Assembly (NCBI GenBank): GCA_026398415.1
Contig: JAPLSY010000084.1
Span: 94,709 to 158,708 of the forward strand
From: Kiritimatiellota bacterium
GTDB taxonomy: Bacteria; Verrucomicrobiota; Kiritimatiellia; JAAZAB01
Reading direction: 5' to 3'
Length of the DNA: 64,000 nucleotides
Below, one piece after another: positions 41,786 to 59,526 of this stretch; position 1 is the first letter of the stretch, and every line of letters begins with the position of its first letter. A program made the translations under genes and the position numbers. The notes beneath the pieces are model-generated. The model searched no databases, had not been told where the DNA came from, and saw nothing but the letters and a program-made list of their open reading frames with translations.

Positions 41786-42017
41786 GCCGGACGACAGACG
41801 ACAGCCCTGATCAGAAGGACGACGGAACGGAGAAGACGGCCTGCCCGCAGAAACCTTGGCGAAGGCGGGACGATGGATGTAGGAGTCGATCCCAGATCGG
41901 CGATTGTAAGAGAACAGAACATAGGCAAAGCGGAGAACAGAAATCAGAATCATTCTTCCCGACCTCTCGGAGAGTCGGGATGACTTCTGACTTCTAATTA
42001 ACAGGAGGGTTCACACC

Positions 42018-42770
42018 ATGGGTACGGGACTAATTGCGGTTATCGTCATAATCTTCTTTCTCGTCGTCAATACGATCAAAATCCTGAAGGAATATGAACG
42101 CGGGGTGGTCTTCCGCCTGGGCCGGTTTGTCGGCGTGCGCGGACCGGGACTGATCCTGCTGATTCCCATGTTCGAAAAAATGGTCAAGGTCACGCTCCGC
42201 ACCGTAGCCATGGATGTGCCGCCGCAGGACGTGGTGACCAAGGACAACGTGTCGGTCAAAGTTAACGCGGTCATGTATTTCCAGGTTTTCGAACCGTCCA
42301 AGGCCATTATCGCCGTGGAGGACTATCTCTATGCCACTTCGCAGATGGGGCAGACGACGTTGCGTTCCATCCTGGGCGAGCACGAACTTGACGACCTGCT
42401 GTCCAACCGCGAGAAGATTAATCAGAAACTGCAAAAAGTCATTGACGAACGTACGGACCCCTGGGGCATCAAGGTCAGCGCGGTCGAGGTCAAGGATGTG
42501 GACCTGCCCGAAAACATGAAGCGCGCCATTGCCAAACAGGCCGAGGCCGAACGCGAACGCCGTGCCAAGGTCATTCATGCCGACGGCGAATTCCAGGCTT
42601 CCTCGAAATTGAAGGATGCCGCCGACATCATGGCCGTCCAGCCGGTTTCCGTGCAGTTGCGTTACCTGCAAACGCTCACGGAAATCGCCACCGAAAAGAA
42701 TTCCACCATTGTCTTCCCGTTCCCGATCGAGCTCCTGCAGTATTTCTTGAAAAAGAACCCGAATCCGTAA
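42018..42770 (+). CDS. SPFH/Band-7 (stomatin-like) protein
   Basis: N-terminal TM followed by an SPFH domain ([45 protein letters not shown]). Confidence 0.8.
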
Positions 42771-42811: not shown

Positions 42812-44818
42812 ATGTCATACTTTAATTTTGCATCGCGCATCAAATCCAAGCGGATTTTACCGATCGTCGTCATTACTTGCCTGATCCTGTGCGGTGGCAT
42901 CCTGACGGGCGCCCGGATCCACGGGTTTTCCTTCGCCTCCTGGCATTCCGCCATTGACGGCTCACCGCACCGCGAAGTGTTCTTTAGCAAGGTTAATCGC
43001 TACCGGACGGATGATTGGATTGTGATGTTGCCGCACATGCTGGCCCAGCGGGCCGACCAGCCGCCCTTTGCCGCTGAAAATCGGCTGATCGGCGACGGGC
43101 ACTACAACATGCTGATCACCTGCGCGGCGCCGGCGCGCGATCCGATGGTGTTATTCCGTCCCCAGGTGTGGGGTTATTTCATTTCCGGCGATATCGGCAT
43201 GGCGTTCCAGTGGTGGTTCTATGTGTTCGGCACCTGGATCGCCGTGTGGCTGGTCCTGCGCCGGTTGACGGGCAACGACGAATGGACTTCCGCATGCGGC
43301 GCTACGGCATTGCTTTTCTCGCCGTTTTTTCAGGCCTGGTCGCTCAACTGCACGCCGACGGTAATTTTCGCCTGCGGCACACTCTTTTCCCTGGCACAAC
43401 TAAGGACGACCCGATCAACCTTTCAGCTTCTGCTGTCAGCCGTTCTCCTGGCCTGGTTCGGAATGGCGTTTTTATTGACCTTCAATTACCTGCCATATCT
43501 GGTCACCCTGTTTTACTGCATCGTCTTTGTTTTTACCGGGATGGCGGTCAGGGCCCATGGCCCCGGCCCTGCCGATAACCGGGAAGCGCCGCGACGCCAT
43601 ATTCATTGGCCCAGCAGGACTCGCTGGGCTTGCGCCCTGTTAGCCGTTCTCTGCATTCTCGGCCTGGGCGCGTACATGGCCGCGAGCAACTGGGAAACGA
43701 TTGCCATCATTCGGAACAGCGATTACCCCGGCCAGCGTTTATCGTCCGGCGGCGATCAAACAATCTGGCATCTTTTTCGGGGTAATGTCCTCAGCATTAA
43801 ACCGCCACCGGCATGGCGGGATTTCAATCCGTGTGAAGGCGCCGCTTTTTTTCTGGTTTTTCCGCTGGTAGTTGCCGCCCTGCTCCGGGACTGGTGGCGC
43901 ACCCGCAAACCACCCCATGCCCTGCTCCTCGGGATTGCAGGTTACATTACCTTCCTGTTGTTCTGGAACCTGACCGGGTTTCCGGAACTATTGTCGCGCT
44001 GGACGCTGATGAATCGAGCGCCGCCCTTTCGGACGCTGATTGGACTGGGAATCGCGGATATTCTTTTATTGTCAGTTTATGTTTCCCACCGGCAACAATT
44101 GACTCCGGCATCCCATAAGGATTACGTTACGCCTTGGATCGTCAGCGCGCTCTGGATTACGTTTCATGTGGTGTTAGGAATCAAGTTTTCCAGGTACTTC
44201 CCGGATTATTCCATCAATACGGCGCTGATCGGCGGCCTTTTTGCGATGGCCCTGGCGCCCCTGCTCTACCTGGCGCCGCGCCTGGTCCTCCCGGCCATCA
44301 TGCTCGCCGCTATCCTGACCACCTATGACGTTAATCCTCTGGCCCGCGGCGGCACGACCTTCATTCAGGAGAACCCGCTCTCCCAGAAAATCCGGACAAT
44401 CGATCAGGAAACTAAAAATCAAGGCCACCAGCCGGTTTGGATTGCCTATGGCGACGCAGCATTGCCGAACCTGTTTCGCATGATCGGGTCGCGCGCGCTC
44501 AACGGCGTGCATGCCTATTCCCAGTTTGAACTGTGGAAAACGCTGGACCCGGAAGGCCAGTCCCGGCCGGTATATAACCGCTATGCCCATGTTGTCTTTG
44601 AAGTACCGCCCGTGCCGGACGATTTTAAAATCAATCTTGTTTATAATGATAACGTCGCCGTCGACCTGCACCCGGACAACCCGCGGTTTGCCGCCCTGAA
44701 CGTGGATTACCTTCTTTGCCTGGACAATCAAGTTGAATCGCTTGACCGCGTAGCGAAGCTGAAAAAGATTTATTCCTACGCCGGCAGGCACATTTACCGG
44801 GTTGAGCACGCGCCATAG
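42812..44818 (+). CDS. Large polytopic membrane protein, GT-C-like putative glycosyltransferase
   Basis: 668 aa with more than 12 TM helices, an acidic 'DD' in the first extracytoplasmic loop, and a soluble C-terminal domain. It lies upstream of the polyprenyl-P sugar synthase gene. Confidence 0.35.
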   Translation: MSYFNFASRIKSKRILPIVVITCLILCGGILTGARIHGFSFASWHSAIDGSPHREVFFSKVNRYRTDDWIVMLPHMLAQRADQPPFAAENRLIGDGHYNMLITCAAPARDPMVLFRPQVWGYFISGDIGMAFQWWFYVFGTWIAVWLVLRRLTGNDEWTSACGATALLFSPFFQAWSLNCTPTVIFACGTLFSLAQLRTTRSTFQLLLSAVLLAWFGMAFLLTFNYLPYLVTLFYCIVFVFTGMAVRAHGPGPADNREAPRRHIHWPSRTRWACALLAVLCILGLGAYMAASNWETIAIIRNSDYPGQRLSSGGDQTIWHLFRGNVLSIKPPPAWRDFNPCEGAAFFLVFPLVVAALLRDWWRTRKPPHALLLGIAGYITFLLFWNLTGFPELLSRWTLMNRAPPFRTLIGLGIADILLLSVYVSHRQQLTPASHKDYVTPWIVSALWITFHVVLGIKFSRYFPDYSINTALIGGLFAMALAPLLYLAPRLVLPAIMLAAILTTYDVNPLARGGTTFIQENPLSQKIRTIDQETKNQGHQPVWIAYGDAALPNLFRMIGSRALNGVHAYSQFELWKTLDPEGQSRPVYNRYAHVVFEVPPVPDDFKINLVYNDNVAVDLHPDNPRFAALNVDYLLCLDNQVESLDRVAKLKKIYSYAGRHIYRVEHAP

Positions 44819-44910
44819 GGAAGGCTTCGGCGTTGACATGCCACCCCTTTTTGTATAACTGTGTAATCTTGAAGTTTGTTGCCAAATCAATCCCGTCGGA
44901 ACCGCCGCAT

Positions 44911-46686
44911 ATGGACGATCAACAGTCAACACGTTGGATCTCCGAGTGGATGATCAAAGGCCATCGGCGTACGATAACGCTGATTGCGGCGCTGGCGTTG
45001 GCCGCACCAGCGGCGTTAGCCGCCGCGACCTGGATGCTTTACGGTTCGGCCTGTTCGGACTGGTGGTATGCCGATGATGCCGCTCACCTGTGGTTTGTGA
45101 TGCGGCACGATCAAATCTGGCAGTACTTTGCAGTGCCGGAAGTCAGCCGGGCAGCCTCAGCCCATTTGGTGCCCTGGGTCTTCATGCTCTATCGGCTGAT
45201 CTATGTTTGCTGCGGCATGGAACACCCGGGCACCGCGTATGCGTTGCAGTTGTTGTCCCTGTTTGCAGTGGCCTGGATGACCCGGGTCCTGTTGGGATTA
45301 TGGGTCTGCACGGCTTGGGCCTGGTTGGGGGCGTTCCTTTTTCTGTTGGGCGCGCCCGTAATGCACGTGGCCCACGAGCTCATGACCGTCAATTATGTGC
45401 AAGGCCTGTTTTTCGCGCTCATCGCCGCCTATGGATTTGTGCGCGCCATCAGGAACCTGACCTGGTGGCCGGCGGTGGCCGGCGGGTTTTGTTACCTGCT
45501 TGCCGTCACGGCCAAAGAAATCTATGTGCCGCTGCCGATGCTTCTGCTGTTTCTGCCGGAGAACACATGGAAACAGCGCGGCCTGAAGGCTCTGCCGTTC
45601 TTAATCGTGCTGACGGCCTATGTGCCGTGGCGCTGGTTCATGCTGGACACGTTAGTCGGGGGCTATCAGTCGCAAACCTCCGGCCCGGGCATCGTCCCGG
45701 TCTGCCAGGCATTACGGCACGTTCCGGTCATGATCCTGGGCGCCGACGGTTTGGGTTGGGGCGTCATGATCGCCGGCTTGCTCGGCCTGATGTTGCTTGT
45801 CGGGTTGAGCTGGCGGAAGATTGTCTTTGGACTGGTTGGCCTGTGCGCATTGCTGGGGCCGCTGGTGCCCTTGACGCAATTTCCCGGCTTGGTCTCCCCG
45901 GGACGCTATCTGTTTGTGGTGTGGTGGGGTATGACGGCCGCATGTGTGCTGGTCATGGAACGGCTGAGTTGCGGTCGCCATTGGCGGGGCCATCGCTGGC
46001 AGGGCCATCGTTGGCTGGCATGGGTCGCGCTCGCGTTGTGGGTGGCGATCAGCCTGGCCGCCGGCCGTGAAATGCGGCGGGAACAGCGCCAATCTCAATC
46101 CTGGATCGACAGCTATGAAACCCAGGGACGGTTTTTGTGGGCCGCTGCGAGCGACCGGATTTTTCTGATCCGCCCACCCTTTCATGTTGCGCGCTTCGTG
46201 GCGGCCATTAAGCAGAAACTCGCCGGCGCGGGATCGGCGCCGATCGTCATCGATGACCAGGCCGATTTGGAAATCCAGACCCGCCTGGGCCTGGTGGCCG
46301 GTGCGGCGCGTTCCAATGCCACGGTCTGGGCGTACAACGAATCGGGGCGCCGGATGGAAGAGATCACGGGAGAATTCCGGCAACAGCAGGCTGAATCTCC
46401 CGCCCGGGTCCAGGAATCGGCCCTGCGGATTGACTTGCAGTTTGAGAGGCAGGCCATGCGCTGGCGGTTCGGTCCATACGAGCAAGGGAACTATCTGATG
46501 GTGCGCCTGGCCGAAGGCCGCATAATTGACCGGATTCACTTTTTACCGGAGGGTCAGCGGGACGCCACGGGCGGCGGCGTCTTTGACTTCTTTCTGCGCT
46601 ACGACTCGCCCGAAGGCTGGACGACCTATTCGCCCGTGTTGCGGTTCGATCGCCAGCAGGGCGGCGTGGTATGGCGCCGGGATTGA
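44911..46686 (+). CDS. Large polytopic membrane protein, GT-C-like (ArnT/PMT-like) putative glycosyltransferase
   Basis: More than 11 TM helices, 'YADDAAH' in the first loop, and a C-terminal soluble domain. Assigned from context with the ArnC-like GT2 genes. Confidence 0.35.
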   Translation: MDDQQSTRWISEWMIKGHRRTITLIAALALAAPAALAAATWMLYGSACSDWWYADDAAHLWFVMRHDQIWQYFAVPEVSRAASAHLVPWVFMLYRLIYVCCGMEHPGTAYALQLLSLFAVAWMTRVLLGLWVCTAWAWLGAFLFLLGAPVMHVAHELMTVNYVQGLFFALIAAYGFVRAIRNLTWWPAVAGGFCYLLAVTAKEIYVPLPMLLLFLPENTWKQRGLKALPFLIVLTAYVPWRWFMLDTLVGGYQSQTSGPGIVPVCQALRHVPVMILGADGLGWGVMIAGLLGLMLLVGLSWRKIVFGLVGLCALLGPLVPLTQFPGLVSPGRYLFVVWWGMTAACVLVMERLSCGRHWRGHRWQGHRWLAWVALALWVAISLAAGREMRREQRQSQSWIDSYETQGRFLWAAASDRIFLIRPPFHVARFVAAIKQKLAGAGSAPIVIDDQADLEIQTRLGLVAGAARSNATVWAYNESGRRMEEITGEFRQQQAESPARVQESALRIDLQFERQAMRWRFGPYEQGNYLMVRLAEGRIIDRIHFLPEGQRDATGGGVFDFFLRYDSPEGWTTYSPVLRFDRQQGGVVWRRD

Positions 46687-46848
46687 CGGCGGACGCAGTC
46701 TATTTAAATGATTACGAAGATTTTTCGACAGGATTAACAGGATTTACAGGATGATGAAAAACCGATCGGATAATCTGTCAAATTGCTGAACCTTAACAGA
46801 TGACTTTGGATGTAATCAAACGCGTAACTTTATCCGGAGACGAAAAGC

Positions 46849-47817
46849 ATGAAATCAGTAACTATCGTCATTCCCGTGTTGAATGAAGCAACCGCGATCG
46901 CCGCGAATATGCGTCAAATCATGGAGTCCGTAAAGTCGTTAGGCGCTACGGTTGATGCCCGGATTCTCGTGGTGGACGACGGCTCCCGCGACGACACGGT
47001 GCGCATCGTACAGCGTCTGGCGGAAACCGAGCCGACCGTCCAGGTGCTGGCCCTCACGCGGAACTTTGGGAAAGAGGCGGCCATCCACGCGGGCTTGGAT
47101 CACGCATCGGGCGACGCCGTGATCGTCATGGACTGCGACCTGCAACATCCGCCGGCCTTGCTGCCCCGAATGATCCAGCTCTGGCGCGATGGTCTTGATG
47201 TTGTGGAGGCGTATAAAATCGATCGGGGCGGCGAGTCATGGCTCTCCGGACTTTTGGCCGGCGGGTTCTATGCGCTCTTCAACCGGCTGGCGGGATTCGA
47301 TCTGCGGAATCATTCTGATTTCAAGTTGCTGGACCGCAAGGTTGTGGAAGCCTATTGCCGATTGCCGGAGCGGGAACGATTCTTCCGGGGCCTGATCACG
47401 TGGATGCACTTCCCCTCCGCGCGCATCCCGTTTGAGGTTCCGGAGCGGAGCGGCGGCGGCTCGGCGTGGTCCCGGCTGCGCCTGGTCAAATATTCATTGA
47501 CCATCATTTCGTCCTTCTCCTCATTGCCGCTGCAGGTCGTGGGCTGGGCGGGCGCCTTGACGCTCTGCATCAGCCTGGTACTGGGCACAAAGGCGCTGTA
47601 TGACAAGTTCATGGGCCACGCCATTGACGGATTTGCCACCGTCATTTTGCTGGTCCTGATTCTCGGCAGTATCATCATGCTCAGCATCGGCGTCGTGGGC
47701 AATTATATCGCCCGTATTTACGAGGAAGTCAAGCGCCGGCCAAGCTATCTCATTGACCTGCGCCGCAGTTCCGTTACGGAACGGCAGAGCGCCGACCGGG
47801 CCGGGGAGCCTGAATGA
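46849..47817 (+). CDS. Polyprenyl-phosphate sugar synthase (GT2; ArnC/GtrB/DPM1-like)
   Basis: 'VTIVIPVLNE...ILVVDDGSRDDT...ALTRNFGKEAAIHAGLDHASGDAVIVMDCDLQHPP' plus two C-terminal TM helices, the ArnC/GtrB architecture. Confidence 0.75.
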   Translation: MKSVTIVIPVLNEATAIAANMRQIMESVKSLGATVDARILVVDDGSRDDTVRIVQRLAETEPTVQVLALTRNFGKEAAIHAGLDHASGDAVIVMDCDLQHPPALLPRMIQLWRDGLDVVEAYKIDRGGESWLSGLLAGGFYALFNRLAGFDLRNHSDFKLLDRKVVEAYCRLPERERFFRGLITWMHFPSARIPFEVPERSGGGSAWSRLRLVKYSLTIISSFSSLPLQVVGWAGALTLCISLVLGTKALYDKFMGHAIDGFATVILLVLILGSIIMLSIGVVGNYIARIYEEVKRRPSYLIDLRRSSVTERQSADRAGEPE

Positions 47818-48653
47818 GTCTGTCCGGCAACATCCAACTGGAAACGGCGGATTGTCCATTATGCGGCGCCGGCAACGGCAAGCCCACGCGGTTCGACTTT
47901 ACGCCCTATAAACTGGCGCGCTGCGCGGAATGCGGTTTGTATTTTTGCGCCACCCGCTTGAAGCCCGAGGATGTGGCCAAGCTTTATGCGCATCACGACT
48001 ATTTTGAGGGACAGGGCTATGATTCGTATGCCGCGCAGGAACCGGCCTTGCGGCTGACCTTTCGCCGGTTTTTAAAAAAACTGAACGCAGCCTTTCCCCT
48101 GCAGGGCGCGCTACTCGAGATTGGTTGCGGTTATGGCTACCTGCTGGATGAAGCCCGGCCATATTTCCAGCAACGTGTCGGCACGGATTTTTCTCCCCAG
48201 GCAGTCAAGCAGGCCGCCACCTATGGAGCCAAAATCTATCAGGGCGATATTGACGGACTGCCCCGTGACGACCGCTATGATTGCATCATCCTGGCGCACG
48301 TTATCGAGCATGTCTATCGGCCGGTTCCGTTGTTGCGCGCCATCCGGGACAAATTAAAGGCGGGCGGCGTGGTGGCCGTGGCCACGCCAAATATCGGCAG
48401 TCTCTGGTTCCCAATCATGGGTCGAAAATGGGCATCGTTCAAGATTCCGGAACATGTGGCTTTTTATGAACGGCCAACGCTGAACCGCTTGCTGGCATCG
48501 GCCGGATTCAGGGACATTCGCACCATTCCCTATTTACATGCGTTTCCGTTAGCGCTCATTGCGAACAAACTGGCGGCACGCATGCCGGCCAGGATGGGGC
48601 GGTGGTCGTGTTGGATTCCAGGGACAACCATTGCCATGGCAGCACGCAACTAA
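47814..48653 (+). CDS. Class I SAM-dependent methyltransferase
   Basis: Motif I 'LLEIGCGYGYLL', a post-I acidic residue, 'DCIILAHVIEHV'. An N-terminal Cys4 zinc ribbon (CPLCG...CAECG). Confidence 0.65.
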   Translation: MSLSGNIQLETADCPLCGAGNGKPTRFDFTPYKLARCAECGLYFCATRLKPEDVAKLYAHHDYFEGQGYDSYAAQEPALRLTFRRFLKKLNAAFPLQGALLEIGCGYGYLLDEARPYFQQRVGTDFSPQAVKQAATYGAKIYQGDIDGLPRDDRYDCIILAHVIEHVYRPVPLLRAIRDKLKAGGVVAVATPNIGSLWFPIMGRKWASFKIPEHVAFYERPTLNRLLASAGFRDIRTIPYLHAFPLALIANKLAARMPARMGRWSCWIPGTTIAMAARN

Positions 48654-48756
48654 CGGGCCAATGGCGAATACGCCTCCGCGCTTGACACCCCGGGCCGCTT
48701 TGTCCATCGTAATAGCCGGGAAACTGTTCTAACCGGCGTCCGATCATGGTGGTTTA

Positions 48757-49734
48757 ATGAAGATTCTTGTTACGGGAGCAACGGGCTTTCTTGGAGCGCA
48801 TGTTGTGCGGCGATTGATCGAACGCCGCGACGATGTGCGTTGCCTTATCCGCCAGGACAAGGCCTGTCTTCCGGAGGGTACTCAGCGCCTGATCGGGGAC
48901 ATTCTGGATCCGGAGGTCCTGGGCAAAGCCATGGAGGATGTGGACGTCGTCTGCCATTGTGCGGCCCTGGTGGCGGGACGGCACAAGCGGGACGATTTCT
49001 TCCGTGTGAACGTAAGGGGGTTGGAAAACATGCTCAACGCCGCCGCCCGTGCAAACGTGAAACGGTTTATTCACATCAGCACGTGCAGTGTGCTGGGCAG
49101 TGGCGTCCATCTCGACACTGACGAGCGCGCGCCTTTGATCGAGTCCGGACACCCCTACCGCGACTCGAAAGTCGCGGCCGAAAGGTTAATCAAGGCAAGC
49201 TCGTATCGTTCCTCGGTGGCCATCATCAGGCCCGGCTGGATCTACGGACCGGGAGAACGGAACGTATTGCCGATGATCCTCGAGCGATTAAAAACGGGCA
49301 AGATGTATGTCATCGCGGGGGGCAGGAAACTGGTCCATACTGTTTTTGTCGGCCACGTGGCCGACGCCGTTGTGGCCGCTGCAGACAAGCCTGCCGCCGC
49401 GGGTCAAGCATACAACCTGACGGATGGCCGGCATTTAACCATGATGGAGTTTCTGGAGACCCTGCGTCGCGCGGCGGCATTGAAACATGGCATCCGGAAC
49501 ATGCCTTATCCGGCGGCCTATGCCGCCGCGCTGGCAGGTACCGCGTGGGAGACTTTGTCAGGCCGGGAAGCCCTTTTCGACTTGCCCAAGTTAAGAACGG
49601 TCATGACCGACTTCAGCTTCTCCATTGAAAAGGCCAAACGGGACCTGGCCTATTCCCCGGCCGTATCAACCGAGGAAGGCTTGAGATTGTTTGTCGAAGA
49701 ATACGAAGCGCGCTTGAAGAAAGGCGGCCGCTGA
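48757..49734 (+). CDS. NAD-dependent sugar epimerase/reductase (extended SDR)
   Basis: 'ILVTGATGFLGAHVV' and the catalytic 'YRDSK'. Confidence 0.75.
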   Translation: MKILVTGATGFLGAHVVRRLIERRDDVRCLIRQDKACLPEGTQRLIGDILDPEVLGKAMEDVDVVCHCAALVAGRHKRDDFFRVNVRGLENMLNAAARANVKRFIHISTCSVLGSGVHLDTDERAPLIESGHPYRDSKVAAERLIKASSYRSSVAIIRPGWIYGPGERNVLPMILERLKTGKMYVIAGGRKLVHTVFVGHVADAVVAAADKPAAAGQAYNLTDGRHLTMMEFLETLRRAAALKHGIRNMPYPAAYAAALAGTAWETLSGREALFDLPKLRTVMTDFSFSIEKAKRDLAYSPAVSTEEGLRLFVEEYEARLKKGGR

Positions 49735-49735
49735 T

Positions 49736-50800
49736 ATGAATGCGATGGCTTCAGGAATGCTGAACATGGCCGGCATGGGCCTGCGCATGGTCGCGCACGG
49801 TTATGTTTCACCCCGGAAAGTTTTGAATTTCATCCGCTGCCTGGCGCACCCATACATGGGCAATGTGATTTCGACAGGCTACCCCCCGGCATTGGCGATC
49901 GACCCTTCGGCCACATGCAATCTGGGTTGTTTCGCCTGCCCGGCGGGTAACGCCGCGCCCACTCCGCTCAAGAATATGAACTTCGCCGACTACACGAAAC
50001 TTATTGACGAAGTCGGCGCTTACGCATTGATTACATTCCTCTACGTCACCGGGGAACCCTTTATGAACAAGGACCTGGCGCGTTATATCGAGTATGCGCA
50101 CCGCAAACGCATCTATACCGTGGTCAGCACTAACGGGCATTTCATCAATACCCCGGAACAAGCGGAAAAAATCGTCAACTCCGGCCTTGACGATTTGATC
50201 ATCACCATTTCGGGATTATCGCAGGAGGTTTACGAAAAATATCATCGGCACGGCCATATTGCCACGGTCCTGAAAGGACTTGATAATCTCGTGGCCGCGC
50301 GAATCAGACTGGGGAAAAAATCACCCAAACTGACTATTCGGTATGTTGAGTTCGCGTACAACCTGGAAGAGCGTGATAAAGCCCGGGCGCATTTTATGAA
50401 ATCCGGCGCCGATGCGTTTACAGCCCGGGCGGCACGTGGCAATATCGCGCCCGGCATGGTGCCCCAGGAATTGAAGGGCGTCATGGCTGAATACAAGCAA
50501 CAATTTATCGCCCCCGGCAATGTGGCGGCCAAGCAACCGCAATACCGGCGCTGCCTCTGGCCGTGGCTGATTGCAGTGGTGAACTGGGATGGCGTGTTAA
50601 CGCCCTGCACGCAATATCCCTGGGTAAAAGAGGAGAACACCCAGAATTATCTCGGCAACGTCTTCAAGGAGGGGAGCTTCCAAAAAGCATGGCAGGGCCG
50701 GAGATTGATGGATTACAGGACACACTTGCTGGATAAAAACCTGATTCCCGATTCCTGCAAGAACTGCATCCGTTCCGTAGGATTCGGCGATGACACTTGA
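49736..50800 (+). CDS. Radical SAM enzyme with C-terminal Cys-rich (SPASM/twitch-like) domain
   Basis: 'CNLGCFAC' (CxxxCxxC), 'FLYVTGEPFMN', and C-terminal cysteines (C..C..CKNC). Confidence 0.65.
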   Translation: MNAMASGMLNMAGMGLRMVAHGYVSPRKVLNFIRCLAHPYMGNVISTGYPPALAIDPSATCNLGCFACPAGNAAPTPLKNMNFADYTKLIDEVGAYALITFLYVTGEPFMNKDLARYIEYAHRKRIYTVVSTNGHFINTPEQAEKIVNSGLDDLIITISGLSQEVYEKYHRHGHIATVLKGLDNLVAARIRLGKKSPKLTIRYVEFAYNLEERDKARAHFMKSGADAFTARAARGNIAPGMVPQELKGVMAEYKQQFIAPGNVAAKQPQYRRCLWPWLIAVVNWDGVLTPCTQYPWVKEENTQNYLGNVFKEGSFQKAWQGRRLMDYRTHLLDKNLIPDSCKNCIRSVGFGDDT

Positions 50801-50834
50801 GCGCTCCCGTCCTTTACTTCCGTAATGCGATCCT

Positions 50835-51578
50835 CTATTCCCCGAACCATTTATGATAGTAGAGCAGGCAGGAGCGCGTAATGAAGCCGCTGCGTTGCAC
50901 CATGCGTTGGGTGGGCACGTTGCGGCCTTGGGTCGCCAGCCAAACGTGCTCGATGTTGTGACGCACGAACCAGTCCAGTCCGGCGCGGAATAATTCCTGG
51001 CCCACGCCGGTTTTGCGGGCAGTCTCGCGTACCCCGGTTAGTTCATACCGGGCTTCCGGCTTGTCCTTGCTGAGCACCCCCGTGATGTACCCGACGACTT
51101 CATTGTTTTTTTCGGCCACCAGGGCAAGCTCGACGCCGCCTTCCAAGCTTTTCTTGACCCAGGTGGCGTAATAGGCCTGACATTTTTCTTCCGAAAAATG
51201 TTCGTCAAAGTAATAACGCGAATCGACATAACTGGTGCGCGCAATATCCTGGCAAATGGGAACGTCGGCAGGTTTAGCGCCACGGATCAGCACATCCGCG
51301 GCGGTTCTCGGCCGGGTATCGGGATTCCAATCGCGCAAGGACCGTTCCACATTCAGGCGGATTTCGACCAGGCGAAAGCCGTTGCTTTCAGCCTGACGGA
51401 TGGTCTGGCGGTCTTCCGCGCCGGCTATAAAATACAGGCATGCGATGCGTTGGTTTGCGCACCAGTTGTAAATTTCCTTGATAATCCGGCTGTCCAGGGC
51501 AGGGACCGCCGCCCGCGCAATACGAAAGCCGAAGAAATCAGTATCCCATTGAAGAAATTGGCAGGGTTCACTCGTCAT
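50835..51578 (-). CDS. GNAT N-acetyltransferase, WecD (dTDP-4-amino-4,6-dideoxyhexose N-acetyltransferase)-like
   Basis: Collinear with E. coli WecD landmarks: N-terminal 'W.TDFFG', 'SR(Y/F)', 'YA.W', and C-terminal 'RVATQ.(G/R)N..A...Y...GF'. Confidence 0.5.
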   Translation of the reverse strand: MTSEPCQFLQWDTDFFGFRIARAAVPALDSRIIKEIYNWCANQRIACLYFIAGAEDRQTIRQAESNGFRLVEIRLNVERSLRDWNPDTRPRTAADVLIRGAKPADVPICQDIARTSYVDSRYYFDEHFSEEKCQAYYATWVKKSLEGGVELALVAEKNNEVVGYITGVLSKDKPEARYELTGVRETARKTGVGQELFRAGLDWFVRHNIEHVWLATQGRNVPTQRMVQRSGFITRSCLLYYHKWFGE

Positions 51579-51831
51579 CTTGGCGGTTTTCTCCTGAGCA
51601 GGCGTCTCATTGCACGTATTTTACCCGCATCATTCTTGGTTGCTAATACGCCTTTCCGCCTTAAGCGGATCCGCATCGGGCGGAAAAGCGTGATAAATTT
51701 CCTCGTTTTCCTGTCGTTTGTCAAGACATCCGTTGAATATTGACTTTCGTTTTTGATTGAATTCAGGTTGTTATTGCCTCCCGGCACGGTTGTGTTAAAC
51801 TGCAGCCGGTTTTCATAGAATTATAAGCATA

Positions 51832-52827
51832 ATGGAATCCGAACCTGTCAGCAACAGTTTGCCCGCAACCACCGCATCCGTCAGCGTGGTGGTGCCGGTA
51901 TATCGTTCCGAAGCGTCCCTGCGGCCGCTGGTAGAACGAATGCTGGCCGTGTTGCAGGGGCACCCGGCCAAGTTCGAAATCATCCTGGTCAACGACGGCA
52001 GTCCGGATCGCTGTTGGTCCTTGATCGAGGACCTGGCTCGCGCCAACCCGCGCATCCGGGGTATTAACCTCATGCGCAATTTCGGCCAGCAAAACGCCCT
52101 GCTCTGCGGTATCCGCGCGGCACGGTTCGACGTGACGGTCACCCTGGATGCGGACCTGCAGCATCCGCCCGAGGAAATCCCGAAGTTGCTGTCCAAACTG
52201 GCGGAAGGCTTTGATGTGGTTTATGGCGTGCCCGCCGAGGTAAAGCACAGTTTATTCCGCCGCCTGGCTTCGCGCCTGATGCGGGTTGTCGCGCTCCAGG
52301 CCCTGGGCATTGCCAACGCATCGCAAATCAGCGCCCTGCGGGCCTTTCGCACGCAATTGCGCGATGCCTTTGCGGAGTTCCAGGGTCCGTTTGCATCCAT
52401 TGACGTCCTGCTCACGTGGGGCACAATGCGCTTCACTTCCGTCCTGGTGCGGCATGATGCGCGCATCCACGGATGCTCCAGTTATTCGCTGGCCAAGTTA
52501 TTGGCGAATTGCTTTGACGTTATTACCGGCTTTTCGACGCTGCCTCTGCGACTGGCCAGTTGGATCGGATTCTTTTTCACGCTTTTCGGCATCGGCATCC
52601 TGATCTACGTGGTCAGCCTCTACCTGATCATGGGCTACAGCATACCCGGCTTCCCCTTTCTGGCTTCCATTATCGCCATTTTTGCCGGGGCCCAGCTTTT
52701 TGCCCTGGGCATTATCGGCGAGTATATTTCGCGGATGCATTTTCGGCTCATGGACCGTCCAACCTACGTCGTGCGCCAGACAGCGGAATACGTTGATACG
52801 AAGCAAACGCCGACTTGTCCGCCATAG
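51832..52827 (+). CDS. Polyprenyl-phosphate sugar synthase (GT2; ArnC/GtrB-like), second copy
   Basis: 'VSVVVPVYRSE...ILVNDGSPD...NLMRNFGQQNALLCGIRAARFDVTVTLDADLQHPP' plus C-terminal TM helices. Confidence 0.75.
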   Translation: MESEPVSNSLPATTASVSVVVPVYRSEASLRPLVERMLAVLQGHPAKFEIILVNDGSPDRCWSLIEDLARANPRIRGINLMRNFGQQNALLCGIRAARFDVTVTLDADLQHPPEEIPKLLSKLAEGFDVVYGVPAEVKHSLFRRLASRLMRVVALQALGIANASQISALRAFRTQLRDAFAEFQGPFASIDVLLTWGTMRFTSVLVRHDARIHGCSSYSLAKLLANCFDVITGFSTLPLRLASWIGFFFTLFGIGILIYVVSLYLIMGYSIPGFPFLASIIAIFAGAQLFALGIIGEYISRMHFRLMDRPTYVVRQTAEYVDTKQTPTCPP

Positions 52828-52881
52828 CTTTTGAGCGACGGAGGAACGCCCAACCCTCCTACGCCCACATCCTGAGGAACA

Positions 52882-54309
52882 ATGCCAACGCCATTTCGAA
52901 TTATGCTGGTCAACGCGGTCGGAGCGTCTTCGTGGCTGGAACGCCGCCAGCCGATGCTGGGGCTCGGCTATCTCGCGGCCAGCGTTCGCCACGCCATCCC
53001 TGACACCCCCTTCGAATTCCGCGTCGTCGAAGAAAATGTCCAACAGGCGGCGGAGCAGTTCAACCCCCAGCTGGTCGGCATCAGCTTCGCCTCCCAAAAC
53101 ACAAAACTTGCCTTGCTTTATGCCGACGAATTCAGCCGCCGCGGCATTCCCGTCGTCATGGGCGGCGTGCACATTTCCGTCCTGCCCCGTTGTCTGCCGC
53201 AAAACGCGATAGCCGCCTGCCTGGGCGAGGGCGAGCAAACCTTCGTCGAACTGGTCAAGGCCGTCATGGGCGGTAAAACCGATGGTCAAACCCTGAAAAC
53301 GATCCCGGGCATCGCCTACTGGGAAGGAAATACACTTATACAGACCGCGAACCGGCCTTGCCTGGCCGACCTCGACACCCTGCCGTTACCGGACCGCAGC
53401 TTGTTCCCGATTTATAAGCACACCCACATCTTTACCTCGCGTGGATGTCCTTATCGGTGCGTATTCTGCGCCTCCTCGCGTTTCTGGGATAAGGTTCGCT
53501 TTCACTCCGCCGAATATATCGCCGATGAGATTGACCTGCTGGTCCGGCAATTCGGCGTGAACTTTATTTCATTTTATGACGACTTGTTTGTCGCCAAGAT
53601 TGAGCGGGCCGAGGCCCTGGCGCGCCTGCTGGAAAAACGCGGGTTGCTCAACAAAATCGGGTTCAGTTGCAATTGCCGCGCCAATCTGGCCAATCATGAC
53701 TTGGCTGCCCTGCTGGTGCGCCTGGGCATTAAATATGTTACCATGGGATTGGAATCCGGCGACGAACAAACCCTGCGTTATCTGAAAGGCGACAATGTGA
53801 CCGTCGCCCAAAACCGGGAGGCAATCCGCATTTTCAGGGAACACGGCCTGCGGATTAACGCGTACTTCATTATCGGCGCGCCCCGGGAAACCGGCGCCCA
53901 AATCATGAAAACCTACGATTTTATCCGGCAATCCAAGCCGGACCTGGTGGGCGTGAGTGTCCTGACTCCGTTTCCCGGCACGCCGGTCTGGGAATATGCC
54001 AAGGGCCGGAACCTGGTAGCGGATGAATCCTTTGACTGGACTAAATTAAATACCGGCGTTTACGACCATTCGGATAAATTTGTCCTGCTCTCCGAAGTGT
54101 TGACCCGCGCCGCATTCATCGGTTTTTATAAAAAAATGCAGCGTCTGCAATTCCGGCGGAACCTTATCGGTATTTGCCGCCATCCCATGCTCAACGACAT
54201 TGTCCTGATGCTGATTAATATTATCGCGCACCATTGCCGTCAGTGGTTGCACATCGCTGCGCGGCCCCAACCCCTGGCCGCAGAAAAGCCGGCGCCGGAT
54301 GCCGTATGA
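52882..54309 (+). CDS. Cobalamin-binding radical SAM enzyme (class B; putative C-methyltransferase or epimerase)
   Basis: N-terminal B12-binding Rossmann (LGLGYLAA...VGISF...VVMGGVH) and the radical SAM core 'SRGCPYRCVFC'. Confidence 0.7.
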   Translation: MPTPFRIMLVNAVGASSWLERRQPMLGLGYLAASVRHAIPDTPFEFRVVEENVQQAAEQFNPQLVGISFASQNTKLALLYADEFSRRGIPVVMGGVHISVLPRCLPQNAIAACLGEGEQTFVELVKAVMGGKTDGQTLKTIPGIAYWEGNTLIQTANRPCLADLDTLPLPDRSLFPIYKHTHIFTSRGCPYRCVFCASSRFWDKVRFHSAEYIADEIDLLVRQFGVNFISFYDDLFVAKIERAEALARLLEKRGLLNKIGFSCNCRANLANHDLAALLVRLGIKYVTMGLESGDEQTLRYLKGDNVTVAQNREAIRIFREHGLRINAYFIIGAPRETGAQIMKTYDFIRQSKPDLVGVSVLTPFPGTPVWEYAKGRNLVADESFDWTKLNTGVYDHSDKFVLLSEVLTRAAFIGFYKKMQRLQFRRNLIGICRHPMLNDIVLMLINIIAHHCRQWLHIAARPQPLAAEKPAPDAV

Positions 54310-54419
54310 CTCGTCAATCTAAAAACATAAAATCAGCGCTCCGCACTAAGCCGCGTGGCAAGCAAGTTCACCACGCCCGCAGCGCGGTGGCCCCGTTGCC
54401 GCAAACGGGGCATTCCGCC

Positions 54420-55568
54420 ATGACCCAGTCCGATTATGCCATCCCCTTTAATCGCCCCTGTTTTGTCGGCAACGAACAGGCTTACATGACCCGGGCCATC
54501 GCCAACGGCCAGATTTCGGGCGATGGCGCCTTCACGCGCCAATGCCATGCTTATCTTGAAAAAGCGCTTGGCGTACCCAAGGCATTATTGACCACCTCCT
54601 GCACGCACGCGCTGGAAATGGCGGCGCTCCTGCTCAATATCCAGCCCGGCGATGAAGTCATCGTGCCATCCTTCACTTTCGTTTCCACCGTCAACGCCTT
54701 TGTGCTCCGCGGCGCGCGCCCGGTGTTCGTTGATATCCGGCCGGACACGCTTAACCTGGATGAATCCTGCCTGGAGCGGCTGATCACGCCGCGCACCAAA
54801 GCCATCGTGCCGGTGCATTACGCCGGCGTGGGCTGCGAAATGGATGCCATTCTGGCTATCGCCGGAGCGCATGGCATTCCCGTGGTGGAGGACAATGCCC
54901 ACGGTCTGTTGGGCCGTTACAAGGGCCGCTGGCTGGGAACCTTCGGATGCCTGGCGGCCCAGAGCTTTCACGAAACCAAGAACTTTACCTGCGGTGAGGG
55001 TGGCGCCCTGCTGATTAACGACCCACGGTTCATCGAGCGGGCCGAAATCCTGAGGGAAAAAGGCACAAACCGCAGCCAGATGTTCCGGGGTCAAGTCGCT
55101 AAATACTCCTGGATTGACGTGGGTTCCAGCTACCTGCCCTCCGACCTGCTGGCGGCTTTCCTGCTGGCCCAGTTCGAGGCCCGGGATCATATTCAATCCG
55201 TTCGCCGGCGACTCTGGGATTTTTATGCCGCGCATTTGCGCGATTGGGCCGGCCGGCGCCACGTTGGCCTGCCGTCTGTCCCGGAGCATTGCGAACAGTC
55301 CTATCACATGTTTTATATGCTCATGCCATCGCTGGCCGCGCGGCAGGCGTTAATCGATCATCTGAAAACCAAGGGCATCCTGGCGGTCTACCACTACCTG
55401 CCTTTGCACCTCTCGGTTATGGGCCGCCGCTTTGACGGACGGACGGGCGATTGCCCGGTAACGGAATCGGTCAGCGACCGCCTGGTGCGCCTGCCGTTTT
55501 ATATCGGGCTGAGCAAAGCGGACCAAGCCCGCGTGGTGGCCGCGATTCTCGAATGCCCGGTGATTTAA
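54420..55568 (+). CDS. DegT/ArnB/WecE-family PLP aminotransferase (dTDP-4-keto-6-deoxyhexose 4-aminotransferase-like)
   Basis: Extensive collinear identity with E. coli WecE, recalled from memory: FTFVSTVNAFVLRGA.PVFVD(I/V)RPDT.N(L/I)DE; HYAGV.CEMD; FHETKN(F/Y)T.GEGGA.LIND; RAEI(L/I)REKGTNRSQ.FRGQV.KY.W.D.GSSYL.SDL.AA.L.AQ(F/L)EA; LRLP(F/L)(Y)..L. Confidence 0.8.
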   Translation: MTQSDYAIPFNRPCFVGNEQAYMTRAIANGQISGDGAFTRQCHAYLEKALGVPKALLTTSCTHALEMAALLLNIQPGDEVIVPSFTFVSTVNAFVLRGARPVFVDIRPDTLNLDESCLERLITPRTKAIVPVHYAGVGCEMDAILAIAGAHGIPVVEDNAHGLLGRYKGRWLGTFGCLAAQSFHETKNFTCGEGGALLINDPRFIERAEILREKGTNRSQMFRGQVAKYSWIDVGSSYLPSDLLAAFLLAQFEARDHIQSVRRRLWDFYAAHLRDWAGRRHVGLPSVPEHCEQSYHMFYMLMPSLAARQALIDHLKTKGILAVYHYLPLHLSVMGRRFDGRTGDCPVTESVSDRLVRLPFYIGLSKADQARVVAAILECPVI

Positions 55569-55577
55569 CCTAATGTA

Positions 55578-57257
55578 ATGGACCAATTCACTAAATGGAT
55601 CAATGCTTCCTGGCCGCTCTTCATTCTGAACGGGCTCTTCATCGGCATCGGTTTATCCTGGCTTTTCCTGATCCCCTACAACAATGCCCCCGACGAAAAC
55701 ACGCATTTCAAATACAGCGTTGAGTTCATTCTCACCCACCATCGCCTGCCGGTCTGGGGCGTGGATGATTTAAACCAGTTCCGTCACTCAATCGGTACTT
55801 ATAACCAGATGCCGGCGCTGAACTACGTGGCCGCCGCCGCCACCGCACATGCCGGCCACACGCTGTTTGGCATCGAGCCCTACCACGGCGCCCGGCTGGC
55901 ATCGTTAGCCTGGGGCCTGATTTTCATCAATGGCCTCTTTCTAACCATCAGGACACTGATTGATCGTCCGCTATCGTCGGCGATTGTCACGATGGCGTTC
56001 GCCTTCATTCCCCAGGTCCTATTCATCTTTTGTTATGTGAACGCGGACGCCTACGCGCTGGGCATCACCGCCCTGCTGGCGTATACGCTGGCGCGATTCT
56101 GGAAAACGCCATCCAATGCCGCCCTGGTCATGGTCGGCTTGGCCGGGGGCCTGCTCTTTTCGGCCAAATATAATTATTTTATCTTCATCCCTTTTCTGGC
56201 GGCCGGTTTCAGCTACCTGGCTTATCGCGGTCGCCTGCCGTGGTCTGCCGTGTTCCGCATGGCCCTGGCCGTGGCCTGCGGCGCCATCCTGATTTCCGGA
56301 TTCTGGTATGCGCGTAATTACTGGCTTTACGGGACGCCCATGCCTGTGCTCCTCGGCGAGGAACGTCTGGCACAATTAGGGGTCCTGCGCGAGGCGGTTC
56401 CCGTGAATCATGGGTTTTCCCGCGCATCCCTCCTCTGGCTGGTTCAGCAGAAATTTGTGACGACCACGTTCGCTTCGTTCTTCGGCCTGTTCGGCTATCT
56501 GGATGTCGGGTTCTGGCCGGAAGTGTACGCCCTGCTCCGGATCATCATTCCCGCGCTGGGCGCCCTGTTTCTATTTGAACTCCTGATGACGCGCGATCGC
56601 CCCGCCGAGATCGCCGCCCTGTGGCTGAGCGCCTTAATGCTGGCGGTATTGGGCATGCATGTGTGGATGAGTCTGTCCAACAATTTCCAGCCCCAAGGCC
56701 GGTATTATTTCACCGTGCTGGTGCCGATGGCGGTATTTTTGGGATGGACCGCCCGGCGCCAGCGTCGATTGCTGAAATACGCCGTAGCCCTGATGGTGGT
56801 GACCGGCGCGCTGATGGTCCAGGCAACCATGCTTTTCGCCCAAACGTACGGGGAGCCCCTGGTTTTTGCGGTCTTCTGGGATGGACCGGCGGGCCGCTGT
56901 GCGGCGATCAGCCGGGCGGAGCGCGTGGGAAAAAACTGTATCCGGGTTTCCTGCGCGCCCGACGACGCCCACGATATTACCCTGGTGCGCGTGGATTTTC
57001 CCAAGCGGATCCTGGGGCGTTACCGGGATTTCACACTGACCTTCAATGCCGAAGGCGACAAGCAGGTTTTTAGCGGGACCAATCTGCCGGATCCGCAGTG
57101 CGTGGATATAACATACGACCCAAAACTGAAGGCCTTTGACGCGATCGGACCCAATCCTTCCGCATCCTTTACGCTTTCCCCTGCCCCAACACCAATCCGG
57201 GCCATTACCCTCGATACGGCCGTCGAACATCGCCGCTTGCGCGACCCGGTATTCTGA
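55578..57257 (+). CDS. Large polytopic membrane protein, GT-C-like putative glycosyltransferase (third in cluster)
   Basis: About 13 TM helices, and 'NAPDENTHF' in the first periplasmic loop (the DE motif position of ArnT/PMT-type GT-C enzymes). C-terminal soluble domain. Confidence 0.4.
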   Translation: MDQFTKWINASWPLFILNGLFIGIGLSWLFLIPYNNAPDENTHFKYSVEFILTHHRLPVWGVDDLNQFRHSIGTYNQMPALNYVAAAATAHAGHTLFGIEPYHGARLASLAWGLIFINGLFLTIRTLIDRPLSSAIVTMAFAFIPQVLFIFCYVNADAYALGITALLAYTLARFWKTPSNAALVMVGLAGGLLFSAKYNYFIFIPFLAAGFSYLAYRGRLPWSAVFRMALAVACGAILISGFWYARNYWLYGTPMPVLLGEERLAQLGVLREAVPVNHGFSRASLLWLVQQKFVTTTFASFFGLFGYLDVGFWPEVYALLRIIIPALGALFLFELLMTRDRPAEIAALWLSALMLAVLGMHVWMSLSNNFQPQGRYYFTVLVPMAVFLGWTARRQRRLLKYAVALMVVTGALMVQATMLFAQTYGEPLVFAVFWDGPAGRCAAISRAERVGKNCIRVSCAPDDAHDITLVRVDFPKRILGRYRDFTLTFNAEGDKQVFSGTNLPDPQCVDITYDPKLKAFDAIGPNPSASFTLSPAPTPIRAITLDTAVEHRRLRDPVF

Positions 57258-58245: not shown

Positions 58246-58373
58246 ACATTACATCACGTGATGTAATATGTGCATCAGTATGCGCAATGGAACCAAGAAC
58301 TGCAAGTTTAATATTCAGATGGCAGAACGATGCTAAAATATATTTATGTATTTCTGTCGATTATCAAAGCAAA

Positions 58374-59330: not shown

Positions 59331-59526
59331 CTAACGATACGGCTTGTTTGTCTAACGCTCAATTTGCGCTCGTCCCGCCTCAGCCATCTTTGTATACTCG
59401 CGGCACACTGGGTAAAACATTACGTCTTGTCAAGCGGTTTTTTGACGGATATCATTCCCTAGCTAGGTACCGATGGGATGCTATTATTGAGGCATAATAC
59501 CTTGTTCGGGAAGAAGGTAAAATGGT

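Follow-up and report, generated by a model that had tools for sequence, protein, structure and literature searches.

The stretch analysed here, referred to as the window, is 64,000 nucleotides of a contig from a Kiritimatiellota bacterium (JAPLSY010000084.1), and our subject is a run of 11 tightly packed open reading frames (ORFs) that fill positions 42812-57257 (14.5 kb) of it. Ten of the ORFs lie on the forward strand, and the one coding for a GNAT-family acyltransferase lies alone on the reverse strand. We propose that this gene cluster is probably a composite extracytoplasmic glycosylation locus of the Arn/Gtr-like kind, served by two lipid-linked sugar donors. An earlier reading, made from the letters of the window without database searches (the sequence-only reading), had listed the same 11 genes; all were recovered at its coordinates, with family matches in Pfam or NCBIfam for every one but M2. 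Orthologous clusters are found in other Kiritimatiellia, Verrucomicrobiota and Lentisphaerae assemblies, which argues that the arrangement is not due to chance.

The cluster encodes two enzymes assigned as polyprenyl-phosphate glycosyltransferases (Pren-P GTs; GT2a and GT2b), three large membrane proteins (M1, M2 and M3), an aminotransferase (WecE), the GNAT, an S-adenosylmethionine (SAM)-dependent methyltransferase (MT), a short-chain dehydrogenase/reductase (SDR) and two radical-SAM enzymes, one with a B12-binding domain (the B12 enzyme) and one with a SPASM domain (the SPASM enzyme). Comparison with related loci, designated below by L numbers, shows that the cluster is a composite of three parts: a conserved cassette (GT2b, GNAT, WecE and a GT-C-type membrane protein), a second, separable module made of M2, GT2a and MT, and a variable set of tailoring genes.

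GT2a and GT2b as polyprenyl-phosphate glycosyltransferases

The assignment of GT2a and GT2b as ArnC/GtrB-type Pren-P GTs, and not as ordinary nucleotide-sugar glycosyltransferases, is based on three features: full-length matches to known members, the catalytic motif, and two membrane helices at the C terminus. Residues 15-318 of GT2b align with residues 8-314 of the solved ArnC structure 9BHC (E 2.7e-52), and the protein also gives a full-length match to GtrB (5EKE, E 3.5e-44). GT2a aligns over residues 4-303 with residues 3-303 of the NCBIfam model for PgfS (248 bits, cutoff 500) and, again over its full length, with the NCBIfam ArnC model (138 bits, below the equivalog cutoff); within the cluster the ArnC model reaches 207 bits against a cutoff of 529. 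Both proteins match Pfam Glycos_transf_2 with similar scores (104 bits for GT2b, 102 for GT2a). The catalytic motif reads DADLQH in GT2b and DCDLQH in GT2a. Enzymes of the Pren-P GT family carry a DxDLQ(N/D/H) motif that provides metal binding and the catalytic base, and the form DxDLQH is described for the family in the paper on the ArnC structure (PMC12690121). The C-terminal helix pair is predicted in both proteins. The sequence-only reading, which had called both enzymes ArnC/GtrB-type and had named the lack of this pair as one finding that would undo it, is thus upheld on this point.

The two enzymes differ in their neighbours. Orthologues of GT2a (87-90% identity) always adjoin M2 and MT, and MT is kept beside GT2a and M2 in loci L008, L014 and L015. 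In the window the start of MT overlaps the stop of GT2a by 4 nt. GT2b, in turn, is the anchor of the conserved cassette.

Three membrane proteins of distinct families

M1, M2 and M3 are each polytopic with a soluble C-terminal domain, and each bears an acidic motif right after its first membrane helix (YRTDDW in M1, WWYADDAAH in M2 and NAPDENTHF in M3). For M1, which matches Pfam DUF7657 (252 bits) and DUF7654 (98 bits), an AlphaFold2 model of good quality was obtained (predicted local distance difference test score, pLDDT, 85; predicted template-modelling score, pTM, 0.88). The model shows a GT-C fold, its best structural match being AftD, a polysaccharide-directed enzyme. Two residues in the first loop of M1, R65 and D67, are invariant and stand where the first external-loop helix begins; D68, in the same loop, is nearly invariant. 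Orthologues that are 68-85% identical are present in L008, L010, L014 and L015. As modelled, then, M1 is a GT-C-fold enzyme. M3 matches Pfam PMT_2 over residues 88-243 (30.2 bits, cutoff 26.1); it has at least seven membrane helices with a PDE motif behind the first one, and its orthologues in L008, L010 and L015 are 62-80% identical.

M2 has no Pfam match. A word-indexed search returned 12 relatives only, and a full HMMER scan revealed a large family for which Pfam has no model; clustered at 50% identity it makes up 1140 clusters, and 537 of these have E<1e-30. Eight residues are invariant across 48 diverse members (W52, D55, D56, Y162, G165, K202, E203 and R241), and four of these 48 match PMT_2, the best with E 5.8e-6. 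A homologue of M2 encoded in L042, near a related cassette, combines a weak PMT_2 match with tetratricopeptide (TPR) repeats. The invariant WxxDD in the first loop and the PMT_2 matches within the family make M2 a probable GT-C protein.

Searches of the PDB with the sequences of M1, M2 and M3 gave nothing useful, and profile searches of the PDB with two membrane-protein profiles, that of M2 included, gave nothing. No relationship between the M1, M2 and M3 profiles was found with hhalign. The three proteins therefore represent three distinct families and are not paralogues, and the description of the genes as triplicated GT-C genes in the sequence-only reading is rejected. The more general statement that the cluster encodes three GT-C-like proteins of more than 550 residues with acidic first loops stands as to size, motifs, the fold of M1 and the PMT_2 match of M3; for M2 the support is indirect.

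Amino-sugar enzymes

The aminotransferase exceeds the equivalog cutoffs of two NCBIfam WecE models (NF008687, 565 bits against 375; TIGR02379, 529 bits against 435), whereas its score with the ArnB model is just 218 bits (cutoff 631). We therefore predict that its substrate is dTDP-4-keto-6-deoxyglucose (dTDP, deoxythymidine diphosphate). Of the earlier label 'WecE/ArnB-type', the first half is retained and the second dropped. Orthologues of WecE share 81-89% identity in loci of the Planctomycetes-Verrucomicrobia-Chlamydiae (PVC) group and 51-75% across other phyla.

The GNAT had been described as a WecD-like N-acetyltransferase, and it is indeed WecD-like: it matches two WecD models below cutoff, PRK10975 over its full length and the other with 56.2 bits against 195, and its closest solved structure is WecD (2FS5), with a match that spans both domains. 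The GNATs found at the same position in L008 and L010 are just 25-26% identical to it. No deacetylase (ArnD) or formyltransferase family match was found among the cluster genes. Since no deacylase is present, the sugar probably stays N-acylated and neutral, unlike that of the Arn pathway. There is a precedent for acylation before lipid loading in ArnC, which accepts only the N-formylated sugar (PMC12690121).

The SDR scores best with the NCBIfam models for OleD (178 bits) and HpnA (127 bits), and only 77 bits with dTDP-glucose 4,6-dehydratase; its closest solved structure is NSDHL. It has the YxxxK motif and lacks the D-E pair after Ser/Thr. These family scores and the missing D-E motif rule out the SDR as RmlB or ArnA.

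Modularity of related loci

The close relative L008 keeps M1, M2, GT2a, MT, GT2b, WecE and M3 at 67-88% identity. It lacks the SDR, the SPASM enzyme and the B12 enzyme and contains a second methyltransferase (292 aa); its GNAT is 26% identical to that of the window. The Lentisphaerae loci L010 and L016 keep M1, GT2b, WecE and M3 (62-82% identity) and lack M2, GT2a, MT and the SDR. L010 carries two non-orthologous B12 radical-SAM enzymes, 27-28% identical to that of the window, and another SPASM enzyme. A 513-aa membrane protein of L010 was considered as an M2 orthologue and rejected, BLASTP being negative. In L015, from another member of the Kiritimatiellia, the whole cluster is found minus the SDR and SPASM genes, and L019, a short Verrucomicrobiota contig, has GT2b together with the SDR and SPASM pair at 75-76% identity.

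The left border of these loci is conserved. In L014, L016/L010 and L021, as in the window, the cluster or a variant form is preceded by genes for NfeD and Band 7 (SPFH) proteins, which we place outside the pathway; the same two genes also lie upstream on the L007 contig, which bears a stand-alone M2 homologue. That several PVC genomes share this pair immediately upstream but differ in what follows it suggests that NfeD/Band 7 marks a fixed chromosomal insertion site of a variable surface-glycan locus.

The cassette in other phyla

Using one genome per GTDB species, we found 514 relatives of GT2b, of which the best 80 were analysed. These 80, every one of them from a metagenome-assembled genome, are 54-82% identical to GT2b and come from about ten phyla, comprising PVC members, Acidobacteriota, Chloroflexota, Planctomycetota, Nitrospirota, Myxococcota, Desulfobacterota, Omnitrophota, Dormiibacterota and Methylomirabilota. 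Neighbours were counted at the 57 loci, among the 80, where GT2b is flanked on each side by 4 kb or more. A WecE homologue lies within 5 kb of GT2b at 48 of the 57, a WecD-like GNAT is present at 38 and a SAM methyltransferase at 25. Large membrane proteins (at least 430 aa and at least seven helices, within 6 kb of GT2b) are likewise found at 48 loci, and 43 have both WecE and such a protein. Those of the membrane proteins that Pfam recognises are PMT/PMT_2 or DUF2079. The commonest gene order is GT2b, GNAT, (MT), WecE. Homologues of the B12 enzyme are confined to the PVC versions of the cassette in this survey. The sequence-only reading had proposed a check for co-occurrence of ArnC-like, WecE and B12 radical-SAM genes: the linkage of the first two is common, but the third joins them in PVC versions only. 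This distribution indicates that the Arn-like core is ancient and widespread, and the radical-SAM decoration a lineage-specific elaboration.

Two of the more distant loci are noted here for their neighbourhoods. In a Bradymonadales metagenome-assembled genome (MAG; L092:12763-14938), a 136-aa, four-helix EamA protein resembling ArnE/F stands directly before the 586-aa membrane protein that adjoins the cassette; this half-transporter is the only flippase-like neighbour of a cassette that we identified. In a Nitrospirota MAG (L070:8359-17991), a DUF2079 membrane protein precedes a GT2b-GNAT-WecE-MT cassette. Behind the cassette come a gene of the Wzy_C family (O-antigen ligases and polymerases), a GFO/hexapeptide fusion and another DegT aminotransferase, so that it stands in a region of lipopolysaccharide (LPS) type.

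We found no description of the cassette in the literature searched, where absence is not proof of absence. Publications on DUF7657/DUF7654, on Fuc4NAc or viosamine on undecaprenyl phosphate, and on B12 radical-SAM enzymes with polyprenyl glycans do not describe such a system either. Within that literature, the earlier impression that this combination of genes is not a described system holds.

Radical-SAM enzymes as variable accessories

Both radical-SAM enzymes that the sequence-only reading had reported are present, with Pfam matches and intact CxxxCxxC motifs. The B12 enzyme combines an N-terminal B12-binding domain (PF02310, 52.6 bits) with a radical-SAM core (PF04055, 85 bits; motif CPYRCVFC) and thus has the features of class B. 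Its NCBIfam matches, all below cutoff, are BchE, HpnJ and PhpK, and its closest solved relative is AprD4, a sugar dehydratase. The SPASM enzyme matches PF04055 (56 bits) and PF13186 (36.2 bits) and has the motif CNLGCFAC, as expected of the SPASM/twitch group. It reaches no NCBIfam equivalog (best 87 bits against a cutoff of 380), and the solved structures closest to it are those of two enzymes that modify sugars, BlsE (2.7e-6) and BtrN. Anaerobic sulfatase maturase was rejected as an identity for it, no such family being among the best 25 of its 32 NCBIfam matches. For both radical-SAM enzymes, similarity to solved structures is at most 69 bits, and all scores are far below every NCBIfam cutoff.

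Among the related loci, orthologues of the B12 enzyme occur solely in L013 and L015, and its slot is occupied in relatives by a SAM methyltransferase, such as the 292-aa protein of L008. The SPASM enzyme recurs in L019 only, there together with the SDR. Since close relatives either lack the two radical-SAM enzymes and the SDR or have other genes instead, these three are variable accessories, and the radical chemistry that the sequence-only reading had included in its Arn-like scheme lies outside the core logic. The exchange of the B12 enzyme for a SAM methyltransferase suggests C-methylation of the sugar or of its N-acyl group as the most likely role, with an AprD4-like dehydration as the alternative. 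The SDR and SPASM pair, judged by BlsE and BtrN as nearest relatives and by the SDR as partner, most likely performs an oxidation/reduction, i.e. an epimerisation or deoxygenation.

The B12 enzyme belongs to a large subfamily, whose members are 45-54% identical to it. Six contexts of subfamily homologues were sampled (L093:7530-10413, L094:3419-11870, L095:5978-9436, L096:4505-9374 and two further contigs). All six are glycan clusters with GT2 genes and contain at least one further B12 radical-SAM gene. A short GT2 with a DUF2304 gene, and a SAM methyltransferase of about 210 aa, are each found in five of the six; a SPASM radical-SAM gene and an AglB-like oligosaccharyltransferase were seen once each. 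A recurring order is GT2 (~340 aa), MT (~210), (~121-aa ORF), B12 radical-SAM (~457), GT2 (~240), DUF2304. The short GT2 and DUF2304 pairs have the arrangement of PpgS/Rv3632.

Gene coordinates and flanking regions

The genes of the cluster and its left flank are listed in Table 1. M1 and M2 are identical to the proteins NT011_10855 and NT011_10860 of a Kiritimatiellaeota MAG. The true start of M2 is most likely the one listed, and not the opening of the ORF, which would give 617 aa. For WecE, whose family alignment begins at residue 70 of the ORF, the true start most likely lies at about the listed position. A scan for promoters and terminators was uninformative, with counts at chance level.

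Table 1. Genes of the cluster and of its conserved left flank, in positions of the window.
Gene	Position	Strand	Predicted product	Length (aa)	Remarks
NfeD + Band 7 (SPFH)	40409-42770	+	Pfam NfeD and Band 7 (SPFH) proteins		conserved left flank, outside the pathway
M1	42812-44818	+	GT-C-fold membrane glycosyltransferase	668	Pfam DUF7657 + DUF7654
M2	44911-46686	+	polytopic membrane protein, probable GT-C	591	no Pfam match; ORF opens at 44833
GT2a	46849-47817	+	polyprenyl-phosphate glycosyltransferase, PgfS/ArnC-like	322	
MT	47814-48653	+	SAM-dependent methyltransferase, Methyltransf_23	279	N-terminal Cys4 motif
SDR	48757-49734	+	extended SDR, 3-beta-HSD/OleD/HpnA-like	325	accessory
SPASM enzyme	49736-50800	+	radical-SAM enzyme, Pfam Radical_SAM + SPASM	354	accessory
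GNAT	50835-51578	-	WecD-like two-domain N-acyltransferase	247	
GT2b	51832-52827	+	polyprenyl-phosphate glycosyltransferase, ArnC-like	331	anchor of the conserved cassette
B12 enzyme	52882-54309	+	B12-binding (class B) radical-SAM enzyme	475	accessory
WecE	54420-55568	+	dTDP-4-keto-6-deoxyhexose 4-aminotransferase, DegT family	382	ORF opens at 54234
M3	55578-57257	+	PMT_2-type GT-C membrane glycosyltransferase	559	

The flanks are housekeeping in character (NfeD/Band 7, a dcw cluster, Mla, TsaE and similar genes). Among the window ORFs scanned there is no Wzx, Wzy, phosphoglycosyltransferase (WbaP/WecA) or ABC-2 transporter, and the sole Glycos_transf_4 match of the window is MraY. The sequence-only reading had seen neither a flippase nor Wzx/Wzy in the cluster, which holds across the cluster and the window ORFs scanned; nor is the cluster embedded in a standard Wzx/Wzy locus, another finding that it had said would count against it. 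Only one small ORF with several membrane helices lies near the cluster: at 59527-59856 on the forward strand, 2.3 kb downstream of M3, there is an ORF of 109 aa with about four predicted helices and without a Pfam match. A flippase role for it is not supported.

The dcw-type cell-wall cluster (24270-36256, reverse strand) comprises genes for MraW, a transpeptidase of the PBP type, three Mur ligases, MraY, a protein with three LysM domains, and FtsW. A double-GT2 protein of 579 aa is encoded at 37636-39375, in the interval that separates MraW from the glycan locus. Just past M3, two small genes lie on the reverse strand (57338-58245), one for a 181-aa protein without a Pfam match and one for a 121-aa protein with a weak winged-helix match (HTH_29). 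They are followed, within 58000-62000, by a stretch of lower GC content (0.53 against ~0.58). The right edge of the locus may thus hold a small mobile or toxin-antitoxin-like insertion. Farther away, two very large FG-GAP-repeat proteins (1459 aa, 2682-7061, forward; 1260 aa, 8291-12073, reverse), in which Laminin_G_3 and F5/8 type C domains occur, are possibly surface proteins, and the window starts with a fragment of a PFL-like glycyl-radical enzyme (65-817), which fits an anaerobe.

Proposed pathway and alternatives

On the composite reading, two modules would operate side by side. In the first, WecE would aminate dTDP-4-keto-6-deoxyglucose supplied from elsewhere in the genome, the GNAT would N-acylate the product, and GT2b would move the resulting N-acyl-4-amino-4,6-dideoxyhexose from dTDP to polyprenyl (undecaprenyl) phosphate at the cytoplasmic face of the membrane. 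A flippase would turn the lipid-linked sugar over, and M3 and/or M1 would pass it to an acceptor in the envelope (LPS, a polysaccharide or a protein). In the second, GT2a would make another polyprenyl-phosphate hexose or N-acetylhexosamine (HexNAc), which the coupled MT may methylate and M2 would transfer. The B12 enzyme and the SDR/SPASM pair would modify the sugar of the first module, and these tailoring genes would diversify the sugar from strain to strain. The sequence-only reading had proposed an Arn-like route. Its amino sugar, N-acylation, Pren-P loading and use by GT-C enzymes are retained here, but the cluster is composite and has no deacylase, and its radical-SAM enzymes are accessories.

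Several observations weigh against this proposal. The cluster points to no particular acceptor. The GNAT matches the dTDP-Fuc4N acyltransferase model PRK10975 over residues 7-236 of 247 at 79.8 bits, below the cutoff of 219, and GT2a and GT2b do not reach the equivalog cutoffs of NCBIfam either, so that the exact substrates of all three are predictions. The window ORFs scanned include neither an NTP-transferase (RmlA) nor a 4,6-dehydratase (RmlB); as the SDR is not a 4,6-dehydratase either, dTDP-4-keto-6-deoxyglucose must come from elsewhere, and its supply is assumed. The AlphaFold2 model of M2, made from a 10-sequence alignment, was unusable (pLDDT 46), and the M2 profile matched neither the PDB nor the profiles of M1 and M3. 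There is no gap or small multi-helix ORF within 42812-57257, and no flippase of the types considered (GtrA, ArnE/F, SMR and MATE) is recognisable in the window. Finally, position and family are the whole basis for the radical-SAM roles, and the proposed C-methylation is at odds with the matches of the B12 enzyme, since BchE and HpnJ are not methyltransferases and AprD4 is a dehydratase.

The principal alternatives concern the acceptor. If the locus were of the kind that glycosylates proteins, as do Pgf of Streptococcus mutans and the actinobacterial PMT enzymes, Ser/Thr-rich secreted or S-layer proteins would be O-glycosylated. We consider this rather unlikely: AftD, the best structural match of M1, acts on a polysaccharide, the cluster encodes no candidate acceptor protein, and resemblance to a GT-C family does not predict the class of acceptor. 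We also judge it unlikely that the locus performs a true Arn-type modification of lipid A or the LPS core, altering charge and resistance to cationic peptides. The closest solved relatives of GT2b are ArnC structures, M3 belongs to the ArnT-related PMT_2 family, the cassette of L070 adjoins a Wzy_C gene, and the PVC group, including the Kiritimatiellia, is generally regarded as diderm, all of which speak for such a role. However, the aminotransferase is WecE and not ArnB, the sugar would be neutral given that ArnD and formyltransferase are missing from the cluster, and three different GT-C-like enzymes with two donors exceed what the decoration of lipid A needs. In Chloroflexota/Anaerolineae, a group commonly considered to have no LPS, the cassette moreover stands beside PMT-type enzymes.

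Two further explanations were considered. An ordinary Wzx/Wzy or ABC-type O-antigen or capsule locus, with GT2a and GT2b as nucleotide-sugar transferases of the cytoplasm and M1, M2 and M3 in the role of polymerase, ligase or transporter, would account for WecE, GNAT, SDR and MT, all typical of O-antigen loci, and for the double-GT2 protein upstream. It is nevertheless very improbable in view of the helix pair and full-length ArnC/GtrB alignments of GT2a and GT2b, the GT-C fold of M1, the housekeeping flanks and the lack of Wzx, Wzy_C, ABC-2 transporter and WbaP/WecA among the window ORFs scanned. Equally slight, in our estimate, is the chance that the genes direct an aminoglycoside- or glycolipid-type secondary-metabolite pathway with membrane proteins for export or resistance. 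Aminoglycoside and nucleoside antibiotic pathways are indeed the source of AprD4, BtrN and BlsE, the solved proteins to which the radical-SAM enzymes are most similar; yet the radical-SAM enzymes and the SDR are dispensable in relatives that keep the GT2/GT-C core, that core of Pren-P GT and GT-C is envelope glycosylation machinery, and no scaffold-forming enzymes are present.

Relation to known systems

The pathway proposed here shares with Arn (ArnA/B/C/D/E/F/T) a DegT-family 4-aminotransferase, N-acylation before loading, an ArnC-type GT2 and a GT-C enzyme of the PMT/ArnT type. It differs in its predicted donor, a dTDP-4-amino-4,6-dideoxyhexose made by WecE instead of UDP-Ara4N, and in the use of a GNAT in place of the Arn formyltransferase. 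The cluster lacks the UDP-GlcA decarboxylase (ArnA), the ArnD deacylase and ArnE/F, and no gene reaches the ArnB or ArnC equivalog. It has in addition GT-C-like proteins of three families, another Pren-P GT and enzymes for radical-SAM tailoring. The locus can also be compared with three-component periplasmic glycosylation systems, such as GtrA/B/C and the Citrobacter ORF12-15/GT136 system (PMC11127046). In common with these, it has a Pren-P sugar synthase linked to a GT-C transferase and a modular, strain-variable specificity; the known systems act on a finished envelope glycan. Unlike them, it has no linked gene for a dedicated flippase, its donor would be a tailored amino-dideoxyhexose from dedicated genes and not glucose or ribose, and two donors and three GT-C-like enzymes are combined in one locus.

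Other systems are similar in part. Like Pgf of Streptococcus mutans (PgfS, PgfM1, PgfE and PgfM2), the locus joins to a Pren-P GT several GT-C-type membrane proteins and an enzyme for sugar modification, and PgfS is the best family match of GT2a; the score of GT2a is, however, about half the PgfS cutoff, and the host here belongs to the Gram-negative PVC group. For the cluster, WecE and the WecD-like GNAT predict the dTDP-4-acetamido-4,6-dideoxyhexose of the Fuc4NAc branch of enterobacterial common antigen (ECA; RffG/RffH, WecE, WecD, WecF, WzxE and WzyE) or an epimer of it. In ECA the cytoplasmic WecF adds the sugar to a trisaccharide linked to undecaprenyl diphosphate, whereas here an ArnC-like transferase is linked. 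Of the ECA genes, WecE is matched at equivalog level; the WecD cutoff is not reached, and RmlA/RmlB, WecF, WzxE and WzyE are absent from the window ORFs scanned. The initiating phosphoglycosyltransferase, Wzx and Wzy of an O-antigen locus are likewise absent from the ORFs scanned in and around the cluster.

Amino sugars on polyprenyl phosphate that are transferred by GT-C enzymes are also found in mycobacteria (PpgS/Rv3632/Rv3779, polyprenyl-phosphate-GalNAc giving GalN on arabinogalactan) and in Francisella (FlmF2/FlmK). Their sugars differ from the one predicted here, and we know of no radical-SAM enzymes in either system. As to the aminoglycoside radical-SAM enzymes (AprD4/AprD3, GenK, BtrN and BlsE), the B12 enzyme is nearest to AprD4 and the SPASM enzyme to BlsE/BtrN, and the SDR beside the SPASM enzyme is reminiscent of the dehydratase/reductase pairing of AprD4 with AprD3. 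The similarity is low, and the context is envelope glycosylation here as opposed to antibiotic synthesis there.

Implications

Antigenic diversity, phage receptors and resistance to antimicrobials are all shaped by glycosylation that takes place in the periplasm with polyprenyl-phosphate donors. To our knowledge, few donor sugars are established (Glc, Gal, GlcNAc/GalNAc, Ara4N, GalA, Araf and Ribf). E. coli already makes the dTDP precursor, for ECA. If our proposal is correct, N-acyl-4-amino-4,6-dideoxyhexose would be a widespread addition to this list, used across about ten mostly uncultured phyla. The broadest form of the proposal, in which the locus represents an undescribed, multi-phylum dTDP-sugar analogue of Arn joined in anaerobes to radical-SAM remodelling of the sugar, possibly in its lipid-linked form, is one that we put forward tentatively, with more doubt than confidence.

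For the protein families concerned, DUF7657/DUF7654 gains a fold assignment through M1, and the M2 family, in all its 1140 clusters, gains a candidate role; if the polyprenyl-phosphate pathway holds, M1 (DUF7657) and the M2 family would be new GT-C families. The clusters with Pren-P GTs also give a functional context to a large B12 radical-SAM subfamily, whose recurrent association with Pren-P GTs in anaerobes points to an unexplored C-methylation or rearrangement on envelope sugars. This would be, if true, the first radical-SAM chemistry tied to polyprenyl-phosphate-linked sugars of the envelope.

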